A stretch of 64,000 nucleotides of DNA. It comes from a virus. This document shows positions 1,658 through 20,381 of the stretch, piece by piece (position 1 is the stretch's first letter; each line of letters begins with the position of its first letter). A program made the position numbers and the translations under genes. A model generated the notes under the pieces. It did no database searches, was not told the origin of the DNA, and worked only from the letters and a program-made list of their open reading frames with translations. The DNA is taken from positions 64,001 to 128,000 of the IMG/VR virus record IMGVR_UViG_3300045988_171958; one strand, 5' to 3'.

Positions 1658-2446
1658 ATGAAAAAGATAAAATATTTGATAGTAGGTTCAGCTTTTCTTG
1701 GTGGACTATCTGGAACATTACCACCCATGTTCATTAATGCTAGTCCTAATATTAATTCATTAGTAAAAGAAAAAGAAGATAGTACTCATCTTTGGAAGAA
1801 CATTAAGCTATATAGTGTAGTAAGAGATACATTGACTATAGAAGAAAGAGTACAACGTATTGAGGAAATGATGACCATTGACATCAATACAATGGCAAAG
1901 TCTTCTGATGTACATGAACATCATACTAATACTTATGAACATATTTATACATATAAGAATGCAAGTATAAGTAAGAAAGGAAAAGAGTTCATCAAGAAAT
2001 ATGAATCTTGTGTCCTTACTGCTTACAAGCTTAAAGGTGAAAAGAGATATACTATAGGTTATGGTCATGTAATCTATGAAAATGATATCCCACATAAGAT
2101 AAGTCAAGAATATGCTGATAAGCTATTTGATAAGGATATGGATAAGTTCAATGTTCATGTAAGAGAATTGCTTTCTGAACTTGACCATAGATTTATCTAT
2201 ACTCAATCATTTATTGATGGGTTGACATCATTGACATATAATTGTGGACCAGATGGTGTAAGAAAGACAAGGTTCTGGAAACGAATGAAGGCATGTCGAT
2301 ATGATAAGGAAACAAAAGCTATCAATAAGAAAGACTTGATTTATGCCATAGAAGCAGTAAAGACAGCCAATATTTCTAGAATATATTATTCTGGTCACAA
2401 GAACAGAAGAAAAGCAGAACACAATAAAATGACAGAAGAAGTATAA
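1658..2446 (+). CDS. GH24 (T4-type) lysozyme with an N-terminal signal/anchor; probable endolysin
   Basis: Hydrophobic N-terminus (LIVGSAFLGGLSG). GH24 core YESCVLTAYKLKGEKRYTIGYGH and downstream LTSLTYNCGP. Confidence 0.8.
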   Translation: MKKIKYLIVGSAFLGGLSGTLPPMFINASPNINSLVKEKEDSTHLWKNIKLYSVVRDTLTIEERVQRIEEMMTIDINTMAKSSDVHEHHTNTYEHIYTYKNASISKKGKEFIKKYESCVLTAYKLKGEKRYTIGYGHVIYENDIPHKISQEYADKLFDKDMDKFNVHVRELLSELDHRFIYTQSFIDGLTSLTYNCGPDGVRKTRFWKRMKACRYDKETKAINKKDLIYAIEAVKTANISRIYYSGHKNRRKAEHNKMTEEV

Positions 2447-14617: not shown

Positions 14618-16573
14618 ATGAGTAAAGTTTTAGGCTTGGATCTCGGTACTGGTATGTCATGTGTAGCAGTAATTGAGGCAGGTAAACCAGTTGTGGTAGT
14701 AAATGAAGAAGGAACAAGAACAACACCATCAGTAGTACAGATTACAAAAGATGAAGTGAAGATTGGTAATGCAGCAAAGCGTGCAATGGTAACAAATCCA
14801 AAGAACACTATCAGTTTTGTAAAGCGTTTGATGGGTGCTGATTTTAATGATGAGAATGTAAAGAAGATGCAGAAGCTTGCAACTTATGATATTGTAAATA
14901 AGTCTGGTAAGCCTTATGTTAAGATCGATGACAAAGAATATTCTCCTGAACAGATTTCATCTATGATTGTTGGCAAGATGAAAAAAGTTGCACAAGACTA
15001 TGTTGGTGAAGAAATTAAAGATGCAGTAATTACGGTACCAGCTTGGTTTGGTGATGCTGCCCGTACAGCAACTAAGACAGCAGGTGAGCTTGCTGGATTG
15101 AATGTACTTCGTGTAATTAATGAGCCAACATCAGCGGCATTGGCTGCTAACTTGATGGAAGACAAGAAAGACAAGACTGTTGTAGTAGTGGATTCTGGTA
15201 CTGGTACAGTCGATGTTTCTGTTCTTGAGTTGTCTGATGGTATGGCTGAAGTACTTGCATCAAATGGTGATGTATATCTTGGAGGTAAAGATTATGATGA
15301 TGCTATTGTAAAGTGGGTAGTTGATGAATTCAAGAAGTCAGATGATGTTGATTTGGCAAAGGACAATATGGCTTATGCTCGTGTAGTAGAATCTGCAGAA
15401 AAAGCAAAGATTGAATTGTCAAGTTCAACACAGACAGAGATTAATCTCCCATATATTTCTATGAAAGATGGTGCACCATTGAATCTTGCTATGACACTTT
15501 CTCGTGCTAAGTTTGAATCTCTTGTAAAGAATTTGAATGATCGTACTGTTGAAAAGGCAAAGATTGCTGTAGAGAAGGCTGGTAAGAAATATGATGATAT
15601 TGATTGTATCTTGCTTGTAGGTGGTACAACTCGTATTCCATCATTACAAGAGGCATTGAAGAAGGAATTCAATAAGCCATTGAATCAATCTGTAAATCCA
15701 GATGAAGCAGTTGCATTGGGTGCTGCTAAGCAAGCTGATATTCTTGCTGGTAATTCTACTGGTGATTTGTTGCTTCTTGATGTTACTCCATTGTCATTGG
15801 GTATCGAAACTAAGGGAGATATGATGGCACCTATTGTTGAAGCAAATACAACAATTCCATGTCAAAAGAAGCAAGTATTCACCACATCTATTGATAACCA
15901 ACCTATGGTTGAAGTGAATGTATTGCAAGGTGAACGTAAGATTGCTTCTGGCAATAAGTCTATTGGTAGATTCAGATTGGATGGAATTCCTATGGCAAAG
16001 GCCGGTGTACCACAGATTGAAGTTTGCTTTGATATTGATGCAAATGGTATTGTTACAGTTACTGCTAAAGATCTTGGTACTAATAAAGAACAGCATATTA
16101 CAATCAGTAACAACACACTTACTGATGAGGAAATCAAAGCAATCAAGGAAGATGCTGAGAAGTTCAAGGAAGCTGATGAAAAGAAGACACAAGAAACCAA
16201 TGACATCAATGATGCAGAACGTTATATGTTCAATACAAAAGAGATGATTGCCAATGAAGACTTTGTCAAGGCTACATCAGATGAAGATAGAGCTAAAGCA
16301 CAAGAAAAACTTGATGCATTAGAATCAATTGTTGTATTGAAGGACAAAGACCATGATAAGATCATGGAAGCTAAGAAAGAGTTAGAAGAAGTTTGGAACC
16401 CTATAGTTGAGAAATTCTATGCCGATAAGCAAAAGAGTCAAGATTGTACTAATAAGACAGAGACACAGGAAGGAAATGCAAAGGAAGAGAATGCGTCAAA
16501 TCCTGACAATGATAAGAAGGAAGAAAAATCAGATGATGTAAAAGTAGAAGATGCAGTAGTTGAAGATGCATAA
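14618..16573 (+). CDS. dnaK: Hsp70 chaperone DnaK
   Basis: LGLDLGTGMSCVAV, VITVPAWFGDAARTATK, DSGTGTVDVSVLE and ILLVGGTTRIPSLQ are present. A full substrate-binding domain and lid follow, with an acidic C-terminal tail. Confidence 0.95.
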   Translation: MSKVLGLDLGTGMSCVAVIEAGKPVVVVNEEGTRTTPSVVQITKDEVKIGNAAKRAMVTNPKNTISFVKRLMGADFNDENVKKMQKLATYDIVNKSGKPYVKIDDKEYSPEQISSMIVGKMKKVAQDYVGEEIKDAVITVPAWFGDAARTATKTAGELAGLNVLRVINEPTSAALAANLMEDKKDKTVVVVDSGTGTVDVSVLELSDGMAEVLASNGDVYLGGKDYDDAIVKWVVDEFKKSDDVDLAKDNMAYARVVESAEKAKIELSSSTQTEINLPYISMKDGAPLNLAMTLSRAKFESLVKNLNDRTVEKAKIAVEKAGKKYDDIDCILLVGGTTRIPSLQEALKKEFNKPLNQSVNPDEAVALGAAKQADILAGNSTGDLLLLDVTPLSLGIETKGDMMAPIVEANTTIPCQKKQVFTTSIDNQPMVEVNVLQGERKIASGNKSIGRFRLDGIPMAKAGVPQIEVCFDIDANGIVTVTAKDLGTNKEQHITISNNTLTDEEIKAIKEDAEKFKEADEKKTQETNDINDAERYMFNTKEMIANEDFVKATSDEDRAKAQEKLDALESIVVLKDKDHDKIMEAKKELEEVWNPIVEKFYADKQKSQDCTNKTETQEGNAKEENASNPDNDKKEEKSDDVKVEDAVVEDA

Positions 16574-16598
16574 ATAATTTACATCAATAACAGTTTGA

Positions 16599-16636
16599 AT
16601 GGTCGATTGAATGAATGAAATTTGATCGACCATTTT
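16599..16636 (+). terminator. hairpin between dnaK and dnaJ (attenuator/terminator)
   Basis: Stem ATGGTCGAT...ATCGACCAT followed by TTTT. Confidence 0.55.
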
Positions 16637-16673
16637 CTATATTTAACATGTCAAAGAATAGATAACAAATAAC

Positions 16674-17705
16674 ATGAAAGATTACTATGATATTTTAGGT
16701 GTATCTAGAGATGCATCAGAAGATGATATTAAAAGAGCATATAAGAAAATAATGCTCAAATATCATCCAGATAGAATGGGTAACAAATCTGATAAGGAAA
16801 AGAAAGAAGCTGAAGAGATTGTAAAATCAGCTAATGAAGCTTATGAGACTTTATCAGATCCACAAAAGAAGCAAGAATATGACAATCCAGGTTTTGGTGG
16901 AGGATTTGATCCATTTGCTGATTTCTTTGGTCATGATAGGTCAAATGGGACATCTTGGCATACTGAAGATTATCGAGATTTGAGAGGTAAGAATTGTGAA
17001 GGAAAATTGAATATTGATATTTCTGATTTCTATTTTAAAGGTATCAAGTCAGTAGCATATTTGAAGGATTTCAGATGTAATGTTTGTGATGGTGAAGGTG
17101 GTACTGGTGTTAAAGTTTGTTCACACTGTAATGGTACTGGTATGGTAACTGAATCTAGACGGCAAGGAAACATGTTCTTCCAATCTAGCCATCCATGCCC
17201 TTATTGTAATGGTAAAGGCAAGACAGTAGAACATAAGTGTGCGGCTTGTTCTGGTACTGGTTTTATTGGTAAGTTGGTAAATGAAGAAATTGACTTGTCA
17301 AGAATTCCATTGGAATATCTTTTGAAAGATGGTATTAGAATTGATGTTGGTCCACTTGGTTCTGAATCTAAATCTGTAAATGGAACAAATGGAGAACTCT
17401 ATATTACTGTACAACATACTTATGACCATAATAAATATCATATTGATGATTATGGTAATGTAGAAGGTAAAGAAGATATTGATTGGAAGGATGTAATGCT
17501 TGGTGGTAAGATTGAAATCAATTTACCTGGTAATAAGAAGATGAGAATAAATCTTCCAGAATGTTCTGAAGTAGGTAAGAAACTTAGAATAAAAGGAAAA
17601 GGTATTGATGGGCATGATTATACAATGGTTGTCAACCCAGTATTCCCTAAAACACTTGATAAAGAAACAAAGAAAGCAATTGAACATTTAAAAGAGAAAG
17701 GATAG
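16674..17705 (+). CDS. dnaJ: Hsp40 co-chaperone DnaJ (type I)
   Basis: J domain DYYDILGV...YHPDR, G/F region GFGGGFDPFADFFG, and four CxxCxGxG zinc-finger repeats. Confidence 0.95.
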   Translation: MKDYYDILGVSRDASEDDIKRAYKKIMLKYHPDRMGNKSDKEKKEAEEIVKSANEAYETLSDPQKKQEYDNPGFGGGFDPFADFFGHDRSNGTSWHTEDYRDLRGKNCEGKLNIDISDFYFKGIKSVAYLKDFRCNVCDGEGGTGVKVCSHCNGTGMVTESRRQGNMFFQSSHPCPYCNGKGKTVEHKCAACSGTGFIGKLVNEEIDLSRIPLEYLLKDGIRIDVGPLGSESKSVNGTNGELYITVQHTYDHNKYHIDDYGNVEGKEDIDWKDVMLGGKIEINLPGNKKMRINLPECSEVGKKLRIKGKGIDGHDYTMVVNPVFPKTLDKETKKAIEHLKEKG

Positions 17706-18669: not shown

Positions 18670-18706
18670 ATTTTTCTATATTATTAATGTTAAAACAATT
18701 AAACTT

Positions 18707-18775
18707 GGGCCATTACGGATTTGACAATCGATACTAAACTTCGGTTGGACGTGAGTTCGAATCTCACATGGTCCA
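18707..18775 (+). tRNA. tRNA-like element with canonical acceptor and T arms but a non-canonical D/anticodon region (best-guess anticodon UAA; uncertain)
   Basis: 7-bp acceptor stem GGGCCAT/ATGGTCC with one G-U pair. U at position 8. T arm GTGAG-TTCGAAT-CTCAC. The central part folds only as a 7-bp stem (18725-31/18741-47) with a 9-nt loop TACTAAACT. Total length is only 69 nt. Confidence 0.4.
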
Positions 18776-18794
18776 CTAAACTTGAAAGAAGACT

Positions 18795-19688
18795 ATGGAA
18801 ATTTTAGACAAGAAATTTAGTAAGTACAAAGTATTTTTTGCAGAGAAAGGTATTACATCTACTTCTGCTAATCATGTTTCTAATAAAGGTAAAGAGTTGT
18901 TGAAGTCAGAACAGGCAATTCTTGACAATATCAATTTTGTCAATACTACTGCTTCATTGCTTTCTGGTGGTGAATCTAGAACTATTACCAAAGGTATGAG
19001 TGCAGATTCTTTTGAATCTATGCATAAGACTATTGCAAAGATTGCAAATCTGAATGCTATGAGTGCATGGATTCATGAAGCAATCAAAGCAAAGACAGAG
19101 ATTCTTGAGTATGTTCAGTCACTTAGTATTGACAACTGGGCTAAAGAACAGAATATTGAACTTCCAAATGCCGCATGTAAGGAATTTCCAATTACTGAAT
19201 CTGATGTAATTGGTACATGGGATGTTGCTAAAAGAAATAAGTATTATGTATATGAATCTTATTGTTCTCTTGTTGGTAAGTTCATTCATCCTAAAGGAGC
19301 ATTTTATGAAGCTAAAGCACAGATGAATAATGCTGTACAGAATCCAAACAAGGTAGAAGGTTCTGGTCGTGATGCAATCATTTATTCTTATGAACCGTCT
19401 ATGCCAATATCTGATGTAAATGTAGAATATAATTGGTTGTCTACTGAACTCCGACATAAAGAAGCAGAATTCAATAAGATGAAGCAAGAAATTGTAGATG
19501 CTATTACAGAAGATAAGCTTGCTAAGGCACAGAAGTTCAATGATGCATATGCAAAATATATTGATACAATGGAAAGTATCAGAAATAAGTTTGACATGTG
19601 GAAAACTAAGGCTGTAAAGGAAGTTAGTGCATTGAAGATTTATCTTCCACAAGGACCTAAGCAGACTTATGATGAAATCAACAAATAA
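18795..19688 (+). CDS. hypothetical protein, 297 aa
   Basis: Long ORF. The antisense ORFs inside it are considered spurious. Confidence 0.65.
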   Translation: MEILDKKFSKYKVFFAEKGITSTSANHVSNKGKELLKSEQAILDNINFVNTTASLLSGGESRTITKGMSADSFESMHKTIAKIANLNAMSAWIHEAIKAKTEILEYVQSLSIDNWAKEQNIELPNAACKEFPITESDVIGTWDVAKRNKYYVYESYCSLVGKFIHPKGAFYEAKAQMNNAVQNPNKVEGSGRDAIIYSYEPSMPISDVNVEYNWLSTELRHKEAEFNKMKQEIVDAITEDKLAKAQKFNDAYAKYIDTMESIRNKFDMWKTKAVKEVSALKIYLPQGPKQTYDEINK

Positions 19689-19744
19689 AATTAAAATATT
19701 GACATAGTAGATTTGCAAGTCCGGTTTAAGATAAGCAAGTCAAA

Positions 19745-19984
19745 TGACATCAGTTATGTGATTACTTCTGAATATATATCTATCTTAGTAACATAGGTGA
19801 AAGCCAAAATCTATATTGGTTTTGACTCTGATAATGAAACTGAGTATCAAGGGATCAAATAAATTTTTTGACCATACAATGTGTAAGCGTACACGCTATG
19901 TTGTTATGGTGTTCTAGTTCATGATCTTGCGCCTTGATACGTTCTTGCTATAGTTCTGGATATTATTGTCATGAACTGATGTCA
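19745..19984 (+). ncRNA. candidate structured ncRNA or long structured 3' UTR (about 240 nt, ORF-free)
   Basis: Nested long-range complementarity: 19745-55/19974-84 (11 bp), 19844-52/19932-40 (9 bp), and hairpin 19871-19910. Locally higher G+C. Followed by a strong hairpin plus T-run. Confidence 0.4.
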
Positions 19985-19990
19985 ACGGAA

Positions 19991-20047
19991 AGGTTAAGAA
20001 ATAGTAGAAAATATTTAAATATGTTTTTGAAATTTCTTAACCTTTTT
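19991..20047 (+). terminator. long-stem terminator-like hairpin that overlaps the next promoter
   Basis: 12-bp stem AGGTTAAGAAAT/ATTTCTTAACCT followed by TTTTT. The 29-nt loop contains the TTTG -33 element. Confidence 0.55.
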
Positions 20048-20055
20048 CTATATTT
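20026..20055 (+). promoter_or_regulatory. promoter (TTTGAAATTT-N-TTCTATATTT)
   Basis: TTTG at 20026-20029, a 19-nt spacer, then TATATTT. Confidence 0.55.
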
Positions 20056-20072
20056 ATTATGTATTAAAATTA

Positions 20073-20381
20073 ATGATTAAGATTATGATAAAGAACAATT
20101 ATTCAAAAGCATATACATATACGATTATTGTGAACATCATATTTGCAAATGGTGTTAAAGAAAAGCTTTGTCGATACACTTGCGACATCAATTTGAATCC
20201 AATTAATAAGATTATGGACAAGTTGAATGCTACATTGATTGATAAAGATGGTACTCCAACGTTAGAATTTGCTAATTGGATTATTGAGAATCATCCAGAA
20301 TTCAAGATAAGTGATATTCTTGATAAGGATACTAGAATATATTTTGAATTTGTTGATTCACTTCCTGCAATTAACATTTAG
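20073..20381 (+). CDS. hypothetical protein, 102 aa (tandem paralogue 1 of 3)
   Basis: ORF sharing DGTPT.E...I and a C-terminal ...D.(L/I)P pattern with the next two ORFs. Confidence 0.55.
   Translation: MIKIMIKNNYSKAYTYTIIVNIIFANGVKEKLCRYTCDINLNPINKIMDKLNATLIDKDGTPTLEFANWIIENHPEFKISDILDKDTRIYFEFVDSLPAINI

Follow-up and report, generated by a model that had tools for sequence, protein, structure and literature searches.

A structured RNA with two hexamer arrays follows a conserved protein gene in phages and prophages of Bacteroidales

Introduction

ROOL and GOLLD, orphan and highly structured RNAs of phages and prophages, are often found near tRNA genes. Short RNA repeats are read in some bacterial operons by ring-shaped oligomeric proteins that bind one motif per subunit: TRAP recognizes (G/U)AG triplets in the trp leader, and HutP recognizes NAG triplets in hut that are grouped into two clusters. 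Type III toxin-antitoxin RNAs consist of tandem repeats of ~34–36 nucleotides (nt) located upstream of an endoribonuclease toxin gene. Also described is the VIPR vrRNA, which is phage-encoded, lies beside a protein gene, and is made of short units in tandem, some positions of which are fixed and others variable (bioRxiv 10.64898/2026.04.26.720920), while ROOL and GOLLD themselves are 580–800 nt long and form RNA-only multimers (PMC12286853). Here we analyze a locus in a 64,000-nt stretch of phage DNA (positions 64,001 to 128,000 of IMG/VR record IMGVR_UViG_3300045988_171958; this whole stretch is called the window). Positions 19702-20048 (+) of the window encode a structured non-coding RNA of ~340 nt, just downstream of a gene for a 297-amino-acid (aa) protein. 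The RNA carries two arrays of tandem hexamers, U1 and U2, with the family consensus GNUNUN.

The locus shares with VIPR an intergenic non-coding RNA of phages and prophages that stands beside a dedicated protein gene and joins short repeats to a conserved structured part. However, the vrRNA unit is YNNGG, with a period of 5, 9–16 copies and a hypervariable NN, whereas the unit here is GNUNUN, with a period of 6 and 2–5 copies in two nearly invariant arrays. In addition, Vipr is an RRM/RAMP protein (RRM, G-loop, thumb), while the protein here is helical and without RAMP features. Membership in VIPR was thus rejected on period, variability and protein fold. ROOL and GOLLD are likewise orphan structured RNAs, but they have no linked dedicated protein gene and no hexamer arrays, and their Rfam models gave no match in the window even at E < 10. 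The targets of TRAP and HutP also present short motifs every 5–7 nt in single-stranded RNA, and by analogy they would be the best mechanistic parallel for the two arrays. Their repeats, though, are cis-regulatory leaders of bacterial operons with no conserved scaffold helices and with other motifs and proteins, and nothing at this locus shows attenuation. A type III toxin-antitoxin RNA was ruled out: the repeats here are 6-nt units only and the RNA is downstream of its gene. Finally, a transfer-messenger RNA (tmRNA) or a cut-down tRNA-like domain is found just upstream of the partner gene, but the ~340-nt RNA itself is neither a tmRNA nor a split tmRNA: it contains neither a tRNA-like domain nor a tag frame, and it is matched neither by ARAGORN nor by the Rfam tmRNA model.

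A search of the whole window with Rfam 15 returned nothing at the gathering threshold and only chance-level scores of 14–20 bits at E < 10, in line with the original prediction, which by eye could assign the RNA to no known class; nor does any Rfam model cover the RNA in 31 related loci. One of the low-scoring likenesses was to Ocean-VII at 19841-19858 (+), where 17 of 18 nt agree (UGAGUAUCA.GGGAUCAGA; 14.7 bits, with the gathering score at 53.5). It is probably due to chance because it falls on the 5' strand of helix P5 (described below), which covaries freely across the family. No description of the RNA or its partner protein was found in the literature covered, outside of which fell one preprint on genome-language-model mining of pairs of non-coding RNA and protein (10.64898/2026.09.22.753630), and the main text of a 2021 catalogue of human-microbiome motifs does not mention the family (PMC8040213). 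The family can be called new insofar as it fits into no known family or system, which by itself demonstrates no new mechanism.

Results

A structured RNA downstream of the 297-aa gene

As the original prediction, made from the DNA letters, had claimed, no open reading frame (ORF) of 60 aa or more lies between the 297-aa ORF and the following one (102 aa; 20073-20381, +). The interval contains only ORFs of 33 and 48 aa, both with TTG starts. Single-base indels disrupt them in close relatives, and stop codons do so in a more distant one, locus L021. Coding potential was therefore dismissed. The interval had also been described as enriched in GC, which is marginal: its values of 0.32–0.35 compare with 0.31–0.36 for the upstream gene and 0.22–0.30 downstream. 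Folding of the + strand yielded -104.2 kcal/mol versus -71.6 +/- 5.0 kcal/mol for dinucleotide shuffles (z = -6.55), and none of 100 shuffles equaled it. The - strand folds ~29 kcal/mol worse, at -75.4 kcal/mol (z = -4.4), a difference that arises because G-U pairs exist on one strand only.

The elements of the RNA are listed in Table 1. When checked base by base, two nested long-range pairings were located exactly where they had been proposed, between TGACATCAGTT (19745-55) and AACTGATGTCA (19974-84) and between GTATCAAGG (19844-52) and CCTTGATAC (19932-40). These are helices P2 (19745/19984) and P5 (19844/19940), respectively, and the hairpin proposed at 19871-19910 is present as P7. The 10-bp consensus of P2 is lengthened by one further U-A pair to an 11-bp helix that none of 200 shuffles matched (p = 0). 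A terminal hairpin followed by a U tract, first described as a 12-bp hairpin at 19991-20047, was borne out as P9, which extends from 19987 to 20048 and has an outer stem of 16 bp.

The source phage is a low-GC jumbo phage, and related phages range from 195 to 295 kb. A scan of IMG/VR and metagenomes provided 13 distinct close relatives (89–99% identical) plus the more distant L021, in which the partner protein is 48% identical. RNAalifold was run on a 14-sequence alignment, with shuffles and 3' partners slid by 1–3 columns as controls. The resulting consensus has 97 pairs in 11 helices, and 99% of cells are paired. Ten pairs change on both sides, versus a mean of 3.9 in shuffles and 0–3 in the slid controls. 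In P2, UGACAUCAG/CUGAUGUCA is replaced by UGGCAUCAG/CUGAUGCCA with G-U intermediates present, an A-U pair becoming G-C in three sequences and G-U in four. Similarly, the P5 pairing GUAUCAAGG/CCUUGAUAC changes to GUAUCGAGG/CCUCGAUAC, with A-U converted to G-C in L096 and L098. A C-G pair of P1 becomes U-A or U-G in relatives, and the P9 stem changes from AAGAAAU/AUUUCUU to AGAAAAU/AUUUUCU in L021. An unrelated and longer hairpin stands in place of P4 in L100. P8, a predicted hairpin of the RNAalifold consensus, shows hardly any variation.

One further part of the original prediction fared less well. It had included an alternative pairing between AGTTCATGA (19916-24) and TCATGAACT (19969-77), and both sequences are present at these positions. 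The only substitutions among the relatives, which produce an A-C mismatch in one case and a G-U pair in another, are uncompensated, the pairing is not found in the other groups of the RNA family, and it was rejected.

The region is conserved in relatives, a point on which the prediction had staked itself, and conservation of its 3' half exceeds that of the flanking genes. Identity is 94–98% for the 3' half (19871-19986) and 97–100% for P9, compared with 88–98% and 82–93% for the flanking genes in the same genomes. Both nested helices are kept, through compensatory changes in the close relatives and wholesale covariation across the wider family described below. Conservation, compensation and covariation together support a folded RNA of the kind envisaged (regulatory RNA, protein scaffold or structured 3' untranslated region); nothing was found in favor of a ribozyme, which had also been suggested.

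Table 1. Features of the gene-plus-RNA module (window coordinates unless a locus is named).
Feature	Position	Strand	Remarks
Partner gene, 297-aa protein	18795..19688	+	Conserved genomic companion of the RNA
P1, 5' hairpin GAUUUGC/GCAAGUC with internal loop and small inner hairpin GUC/GAU	19710..19741	+	
P2 5' strand, long-range closing helix with 19975-19984	19745..19754	+	
P3, variable hairpin domain	19757..19795	+	RNAalifold consensus; one-sided changes to G-U
P4, hairpin AGCCAAAAUC/GGUUUUGACU	19802..19827	+	5 of 10 pairs change on both sides
P5 5' strand GUAUCAAGG, partner 19932-19940	19844..19852	+	
P7, hairpin within P5	19871..19910	+	At the site of the k-turn-like hairpin of most members
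U1, first hexamer array GUUCUA GUUCAU GAUCUU G	19911..19929	+	Aligned by model R1 to family U1
P5 3' strand CCUUGAUAC	19932..19940	+	
U2, second hexamer array GUUCUU GCUAUA GUUCUG G	19941..19959	+	Family signature (GNUNUN)3G
P8, small hairpin between U2 and P2 3' strand	19955..19974	+	5' strand overlaps the last U2 hexamer
P2 3' strand ACUGAUGUCA, then conserved AACGGA	19975..19984	+	
P9, terminal hairpin: 16-bp outer stem, inner stem, UUUUUC	19987..20048	+	
tRNA or tRNA-like genes just past the RNA	L093 4162-4231; L092 3400-3469; also L078, L084		

A widespread family linked to the partner gene

The window RNA is one member of a widespread family found 3' of a conserved gene for a protein of ~295 aa in phages and prophages of Bacteroidales. 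Homologues of the 297-aa protein number at least 2021 in a large protein collection, and relatives were found in 185 IMG/VR stretches and in 141 stretches of GTDB species genomes. The latter are overwhelmingly from Bacteroidales (Muribaculaceae, Prevotellaceae, Porphyromonadaceae, Bacteroides) and include a complete Muribaculaceae chromosome (MF13079, CP061009), where the homologue lies in a prophage at about 2.46 Mb, and isolate assemblies of Prevotella (among them Prevotella sp. 885) and Muribaculaceae. Carriers comprise prophages as well as phages of very different size, the smallest of ~95 kb and the largest, jumbo phages, of ~295 kb. The stretches downstream of the gene in viral loci were inspected by eye and folded; the gene is almost always followed by 200 to more than 900 nt without an ORF. 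In nearly all of the 160 loci examined, a structured RNA follows the gene on the same strand, and the linkage is strict.

Groups without detectable sequence similarity to the window share its architecture. From 5' to 3', a P1 hairpin with an internal loop directly past the stop codon, an equivalent of which occurs in every group, is followed by a short purine-rich linker and the 5' strand of the closing helix P2. Next come variable hairpins, then P5, which encloses a hairpin and the U-rich array U1; the P5 3' strand leads straight into array U2, and the unit is completed by the P2 3' strand. In most members the hairpin before U1 resembles a kink-turn (k-turn), with a C-stem, a 3-nt bulge and GA opposite GA as read from the alignment only. 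Its internal loop reads GCC-UAU-GA ... G-GA-GGC, and CUUGA is part of a conserved loop (for instance, L047 4030-4060 and L116 4055-4085). This hairpin is lacking in group C and in the group of the window, and is common in the family but not defining. With the hexamers of U1 and U2 and the flanking helices P5 and P2, the window RNA has all of the features by which we recognize the family except the k-turn-like hairpin. The RNA of group C, from ~190-kb phages (L023 3913-4350, L008 4682-5110), is ~430 nt long and continues past the P2 3' strand with an extra domain of several GC-rich hairpins, a strong terminator, and then a small lipoprotein-like ORF.

A covariance model of the segment from P5 to the P2 3' strand, called R1, was built from ten sequences of other groups and none from the group of the window. 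In a search of the entire 64 kb with filters off, the top match was at 19841-19989 (+), over the full model length and with P5, U1, U2 and the P2 3' strand all in register. Its score of 32 bits (E = 1.6e-5; second-best match, 13 bits) counts only together with the unselected top rank, the syntenic site and the flanking helices, given the scores that decoys selected by pattern can reach (see below). In every other viral group, too, R1 picks out the expected site, and it matches 66 of 80 genome loci that had been retrieved via the protein alone. Its matches are always on the strand of the gene, ~130–250 nt past the gene end, in sequence of 23% to 57% GC, and no other R1 match below E = 0.1 was found in the genome loci.

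Across the family, all ten pairs of P5 change on both sides with 94% of cells paired, and the covariation score is 0.66, versus 0.16 for shuffled alignments and at most 0.10 for slid partners, the slid control being the fairer one because the alignment was fitted to R1. For P2, an independent script searched each locus for an uninterrupted helix in which the 5' segment pairs with the end of the R1 match. A significant helix (p <= 0.05) was detected in 56 of 103 loci, with helix sequences that are wholly different between groups. A reverse linkage scan, in which IMG/VR was searched for a four-hexamer pattern, was swamped by chance matches, as only 1 of the 120 loci obtained was a true member.

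One locus departs from the usual arrangement. L103 (OHAU01003440.1) is, around the match at 2244-2265 (- strand of the locus), either a natural deletion variant or an assembly artefact. At its junction, the first codons of a 319-aa gene (MEDSKV) are joined straight to GTTCTGGATATT inside U2. Three quarters of the RNA are lost together with the 319-aa gene, a mini-tmRNA (see below) and the 297-aa gene; P8, the P2 3' strand and the terminal hairpin are retained. If the deletion is real, the whole module may be dispensable.

The hexamer arrays

The most conserved feature of the family is not a helix but the single-stranded tandem hexamers, in which G1, U3 and U5 are invariant or nearly so and the other positions are free. 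Against an expectation of 0.07 matches, the 64-kb window has a single match to the strict pattern (GNUNUN)3G, namely U2. In most of the 89 loci that have the pattern it is at the same relative place, often with 4–5 hexamers. U1 is near-invariant among the 14 relatives, with one substitution in 2 sequences.

Fixed bases alternating with free ones could in principle indicate a programmable, non-contiguous guide like that of VIPR, with the protein holding the fixed bases of each hexamer and the free bases reading a nucleic-acid target. In favor of such a guide, positions 2, 4 and 6 do differ between groups while G1, U3 and U5 stay fixed. Within the group of the window, though, the arrays hardly vary (U2 has a single substitution among the 14 sequences), there are only 2–5 repeats per array at a period of 6 rather than 5, and the protein is modeled as helical instead of having an RRM/RAMP fold. 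We consider a guide function very improbable.

A second possibility is that the arrays act at the level of DNA, as iterons of an origin, partition or packaging site, and that the inverted repeats are incidental. Short tandem repeats beside the gene for their binding protein are typical of iteron-type origins, and the arrays do adjoin a gene for a possible binding protein. Several observations speak for RNA instead. The helices are kept via G-U pairs, which are A-C mismatches on the other strand, and the + strand has the ~29 kcal/mol folding advantage given above. Moreover, the helices covary freely yet hold their position, the orientation relative to the gene is fixed, and terminator-like hairpins or tRNAs end the element. 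A DNA element is thus hardly credible.

Transcript ends and the tRNA and tmRNA surroundings

P1 starts 21 nt past the stop codon of the 297-aa gene. A scan for sigma-70 promoters and terminators performed no better than on shuffles and revealed no conserved promoter between gene and RNA. Given this spacing and the lack of a conserved promoter in between, the RNA is most likely made together with the mRNA of the gene. At the other end, P9 is probably an intrinsic terminator and the 3' end of the RNA. Its 16-bp stem and UUUUUC were nevertheless not called by a simple terminator consensus scan because the structured loop is too large. Terminator-like hairpins follow the RNA in 39 of 101 loci; among control segments the count is 6 of 100. 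Several groups have a tRNA, or an unusual tRNA-like gene that ARAGORN reports with a 2-nt anticodon, whose start lies within ~10–30 nt of the 3' end of the RNA, suggesting that tRNA processing sets the 3' end in these groups.

This arrangement raises the possibility of a cis-acting element in the 3' untranslated region that serves only its own transcript, be it by protection from 3' exonucleases, as an autoregulatory operator, or by control of termination and read-through. The position of P1 just past the stop codon, the absence of a conserved promoter, the terminator-like hairpin that closes the RNA here and in many relatives, and the fact that gene and RNA are never found apart, save for their joint deletion in L103, would all be accounted for. 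On the other hand, an RNA of 250–450 nt with two conserved long-range helices and invariant arrays is far more elaborate than known stabilizing or terminator elements, its 3' half is more conserved in the group of the window than the gene it would serve, and the tRNAs directly after the RNA in several groups imply that it is excised by tRNA processing. We regard an exclusively cis-acting role as unlikely, if a serious contender.

In viral loci the gene is set among tRNA genes, and in one group it comes directly after a full tmRNA. In the window, the segment just upstream of the partner gene (18702-18780, +) contains a stand-alone tRNA-like domain of a tmRNA, which we refer to as a mini-tmRNA. 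Its 7-bp acceptor stem (GGGCCAU/AUGGUCC) bears the alanine identity in the form of G3:U70 and discriminator A, and it also has GGAUUUGAC as the D-loop analogue, a short loop-capped P2-like stem (AAUCGA/UCGGUU), and the T-arm GUGAG-UUCGAAU-CUCAC followed by CUA. No tag frame and no pseudoknots were found in it. ARAGORN missed it, as did Rfam at its gathering threshold; the Rfam tmRNA model gave a truncated match of 22.6 bits when 191 nt were searched (E = 1e-7). The domain is kept in L021 with compensatory changes in the T-stem (AGGAG/CUCCU), and L047 and L093 have full tmRNAs at its position. Possible roles are that of a decoy, with SmpB or alanyl-tRNA synthetase as its target, or of a mere remnant. 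The domain may point to phage interference with ribosome rescue.

Other small RNAs were noted in phages of the family. In L008 (MT836666.1; 2977-3118), a tRNA-Leu with anticodon UAA is directly followed by a weak match to a ribozyme resembling that of hepatitis delta virus (RF02682; 28.7 bits, where the gathering score is 44), a combination that we take to resemble the tRNA-linked 'theta' ribozymes of gut phages. The phage of L084, which also carries the gene-plus-RNA module, has a RAGATH-1 hammerhead (71.3 bits) beside a type III hammerhead (49.8 bits) at 1-172.

The partner protein

The 297-aa protein has no match in Pfam or PHROG, nor among PDB sequences by profile search, and its AlphaFold2 model found no informative Foldseek match in PDB or BFVD. 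A tblastn search with the protein returned only two unannotated or hypothetical records, and BLAST of the locus DNA against GenBank phages returned no match. The model (predicted local distance difference test score, 89) is dominated by long helices, one of them 74 residues in length, which suggests that the protein may oligomerize. No clue to its role came from the gene neighborhood. A little upstream of the module, the window encodes two chaperones within 14618-17705 (+): an Hsp70 of 651 aa (E = 5e-204 to PF00012) and a DnaJ of 343 aa that is complete with its zinc-finger domain.

Discussion

The reading that we favor, with a probability of about 0.4, is that the RNA is part of a phage ribonucleoprotein in which the hexamer arrays are bound by the co-encoded protein. 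The fixed bases at every second position and the joining of the two arrays by covarying helices suggest a multivalent platform. According to this model, which is drawn from sequence comparison, the RNA would be co-transcribed with the 297-aa gene, its transcript ending at P9 in the source phage and at another terminator or the following tRNA in other phages, and it would accumulate as a stable species derived from the gene's 3' end. The helices would hold U1 and U2 side by side, such that the arrays could be engaged by a repeat-reading and probably oligomeric protein. Because of the genomic linkage, the likeliest partner would be the co-encoded protein with its predicted coiled coil; the other candidate is a host protein that binds single-stranded RNA.

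Several points weigh against binding of the arrays by the co-encoded protein or against the family assignment beneath it. The protein is neutral to acidic, with an isoelectric point of 5.3–7.0, and no recognizable RNA-binding domain or fold was found in it with Pfam, PHROG, PDB or Foldseek. Synteny is the one argument for direct binding, and we infer the transcript ends and the stability of the RNA. As for the assignment, the fitting of the P5 alignment to R1 has to be borne in mind, R1 gave 24–31 bits to unrelated sequences among 100 of the 120 pattern-selected loci, and the group of the window lacks the k-turn-like hairpin, having a plain hairpin (19871-19910) instead.

That the protein is not basic counts in favor of a different role for the RNA, namely as a decoy or recruiter of a host protein that binds single-stranded RNA (a cold-shock-domain protein, S1, or NusB/S10 acting on a boxA-like element), through which host RNA metabolism or translation would be reprogrammed. 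S1 and Hfq-like proteins favor U-rich single strands, and bacterial boxA elements have the sequence (U)GYUCUUU. The locus is often found among phage tRNA and tmRNA genes, which are related to translation. Furthermore, the repeat unit of groups C and D is literally GUCUUUG, identical to the preferred site of Bacillus subtilis CspB, 5'-GTCTTTG/T-3' (PMC1904285), and the variants in the window are GUUCUUG and GUUCUAG. Yet the CspB and boxA likenesses are resemblances of motif only, with no cold-shock-domain protein encoded nearby, and the motif GUAGGAUA of RbpB, the sole Bacteroides RNA-binding protein with a published motif, does not match. A host decoy would also leave the strict linkage to the 297-aa gene unexplained. 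We judge this role to be distinctly improbable.

A bolder version of the ribonucleoprotein model may be entertained, although we consider it doubtful: the module could represent a new class of phage ribonucleoprotein, common in phages of Bacteroidales from the human and animal gut, in which a (GNUNUN)n code on a conserved RNA scaffold is read by a coiled-coil protein that is oligomeric and has a novel fold, and the complex would serve to take over host translation or RNA metabolism. The suggestion of such a takeover comes from the frequent position of the module among phage tRNA and tmRNA genes. If true, this would be a mode of RNA recognition without earlier description.

Phages of Bacteroidales rank with the most abundant gut viruses, and their non-coding RNAs are almost entirely uncharacterized. 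The gene-plus-RNA module reported here comprises at least 2000 protein variants in very different phages, spans the full range of GC content noted above, and is without a match in Rfam, Pfam, PHROGs or PDB. Its two arrays of hexamers, with every second base fixed and held by covarying helices, suggest a recognition mechanism based on the reading of repeats. A system in which this can be tested already exists, since the module is present in the prophage of the complete Muribaculaceae chromosome noted above and in the Prevotella and Muribaculaceae isolate assemblies.

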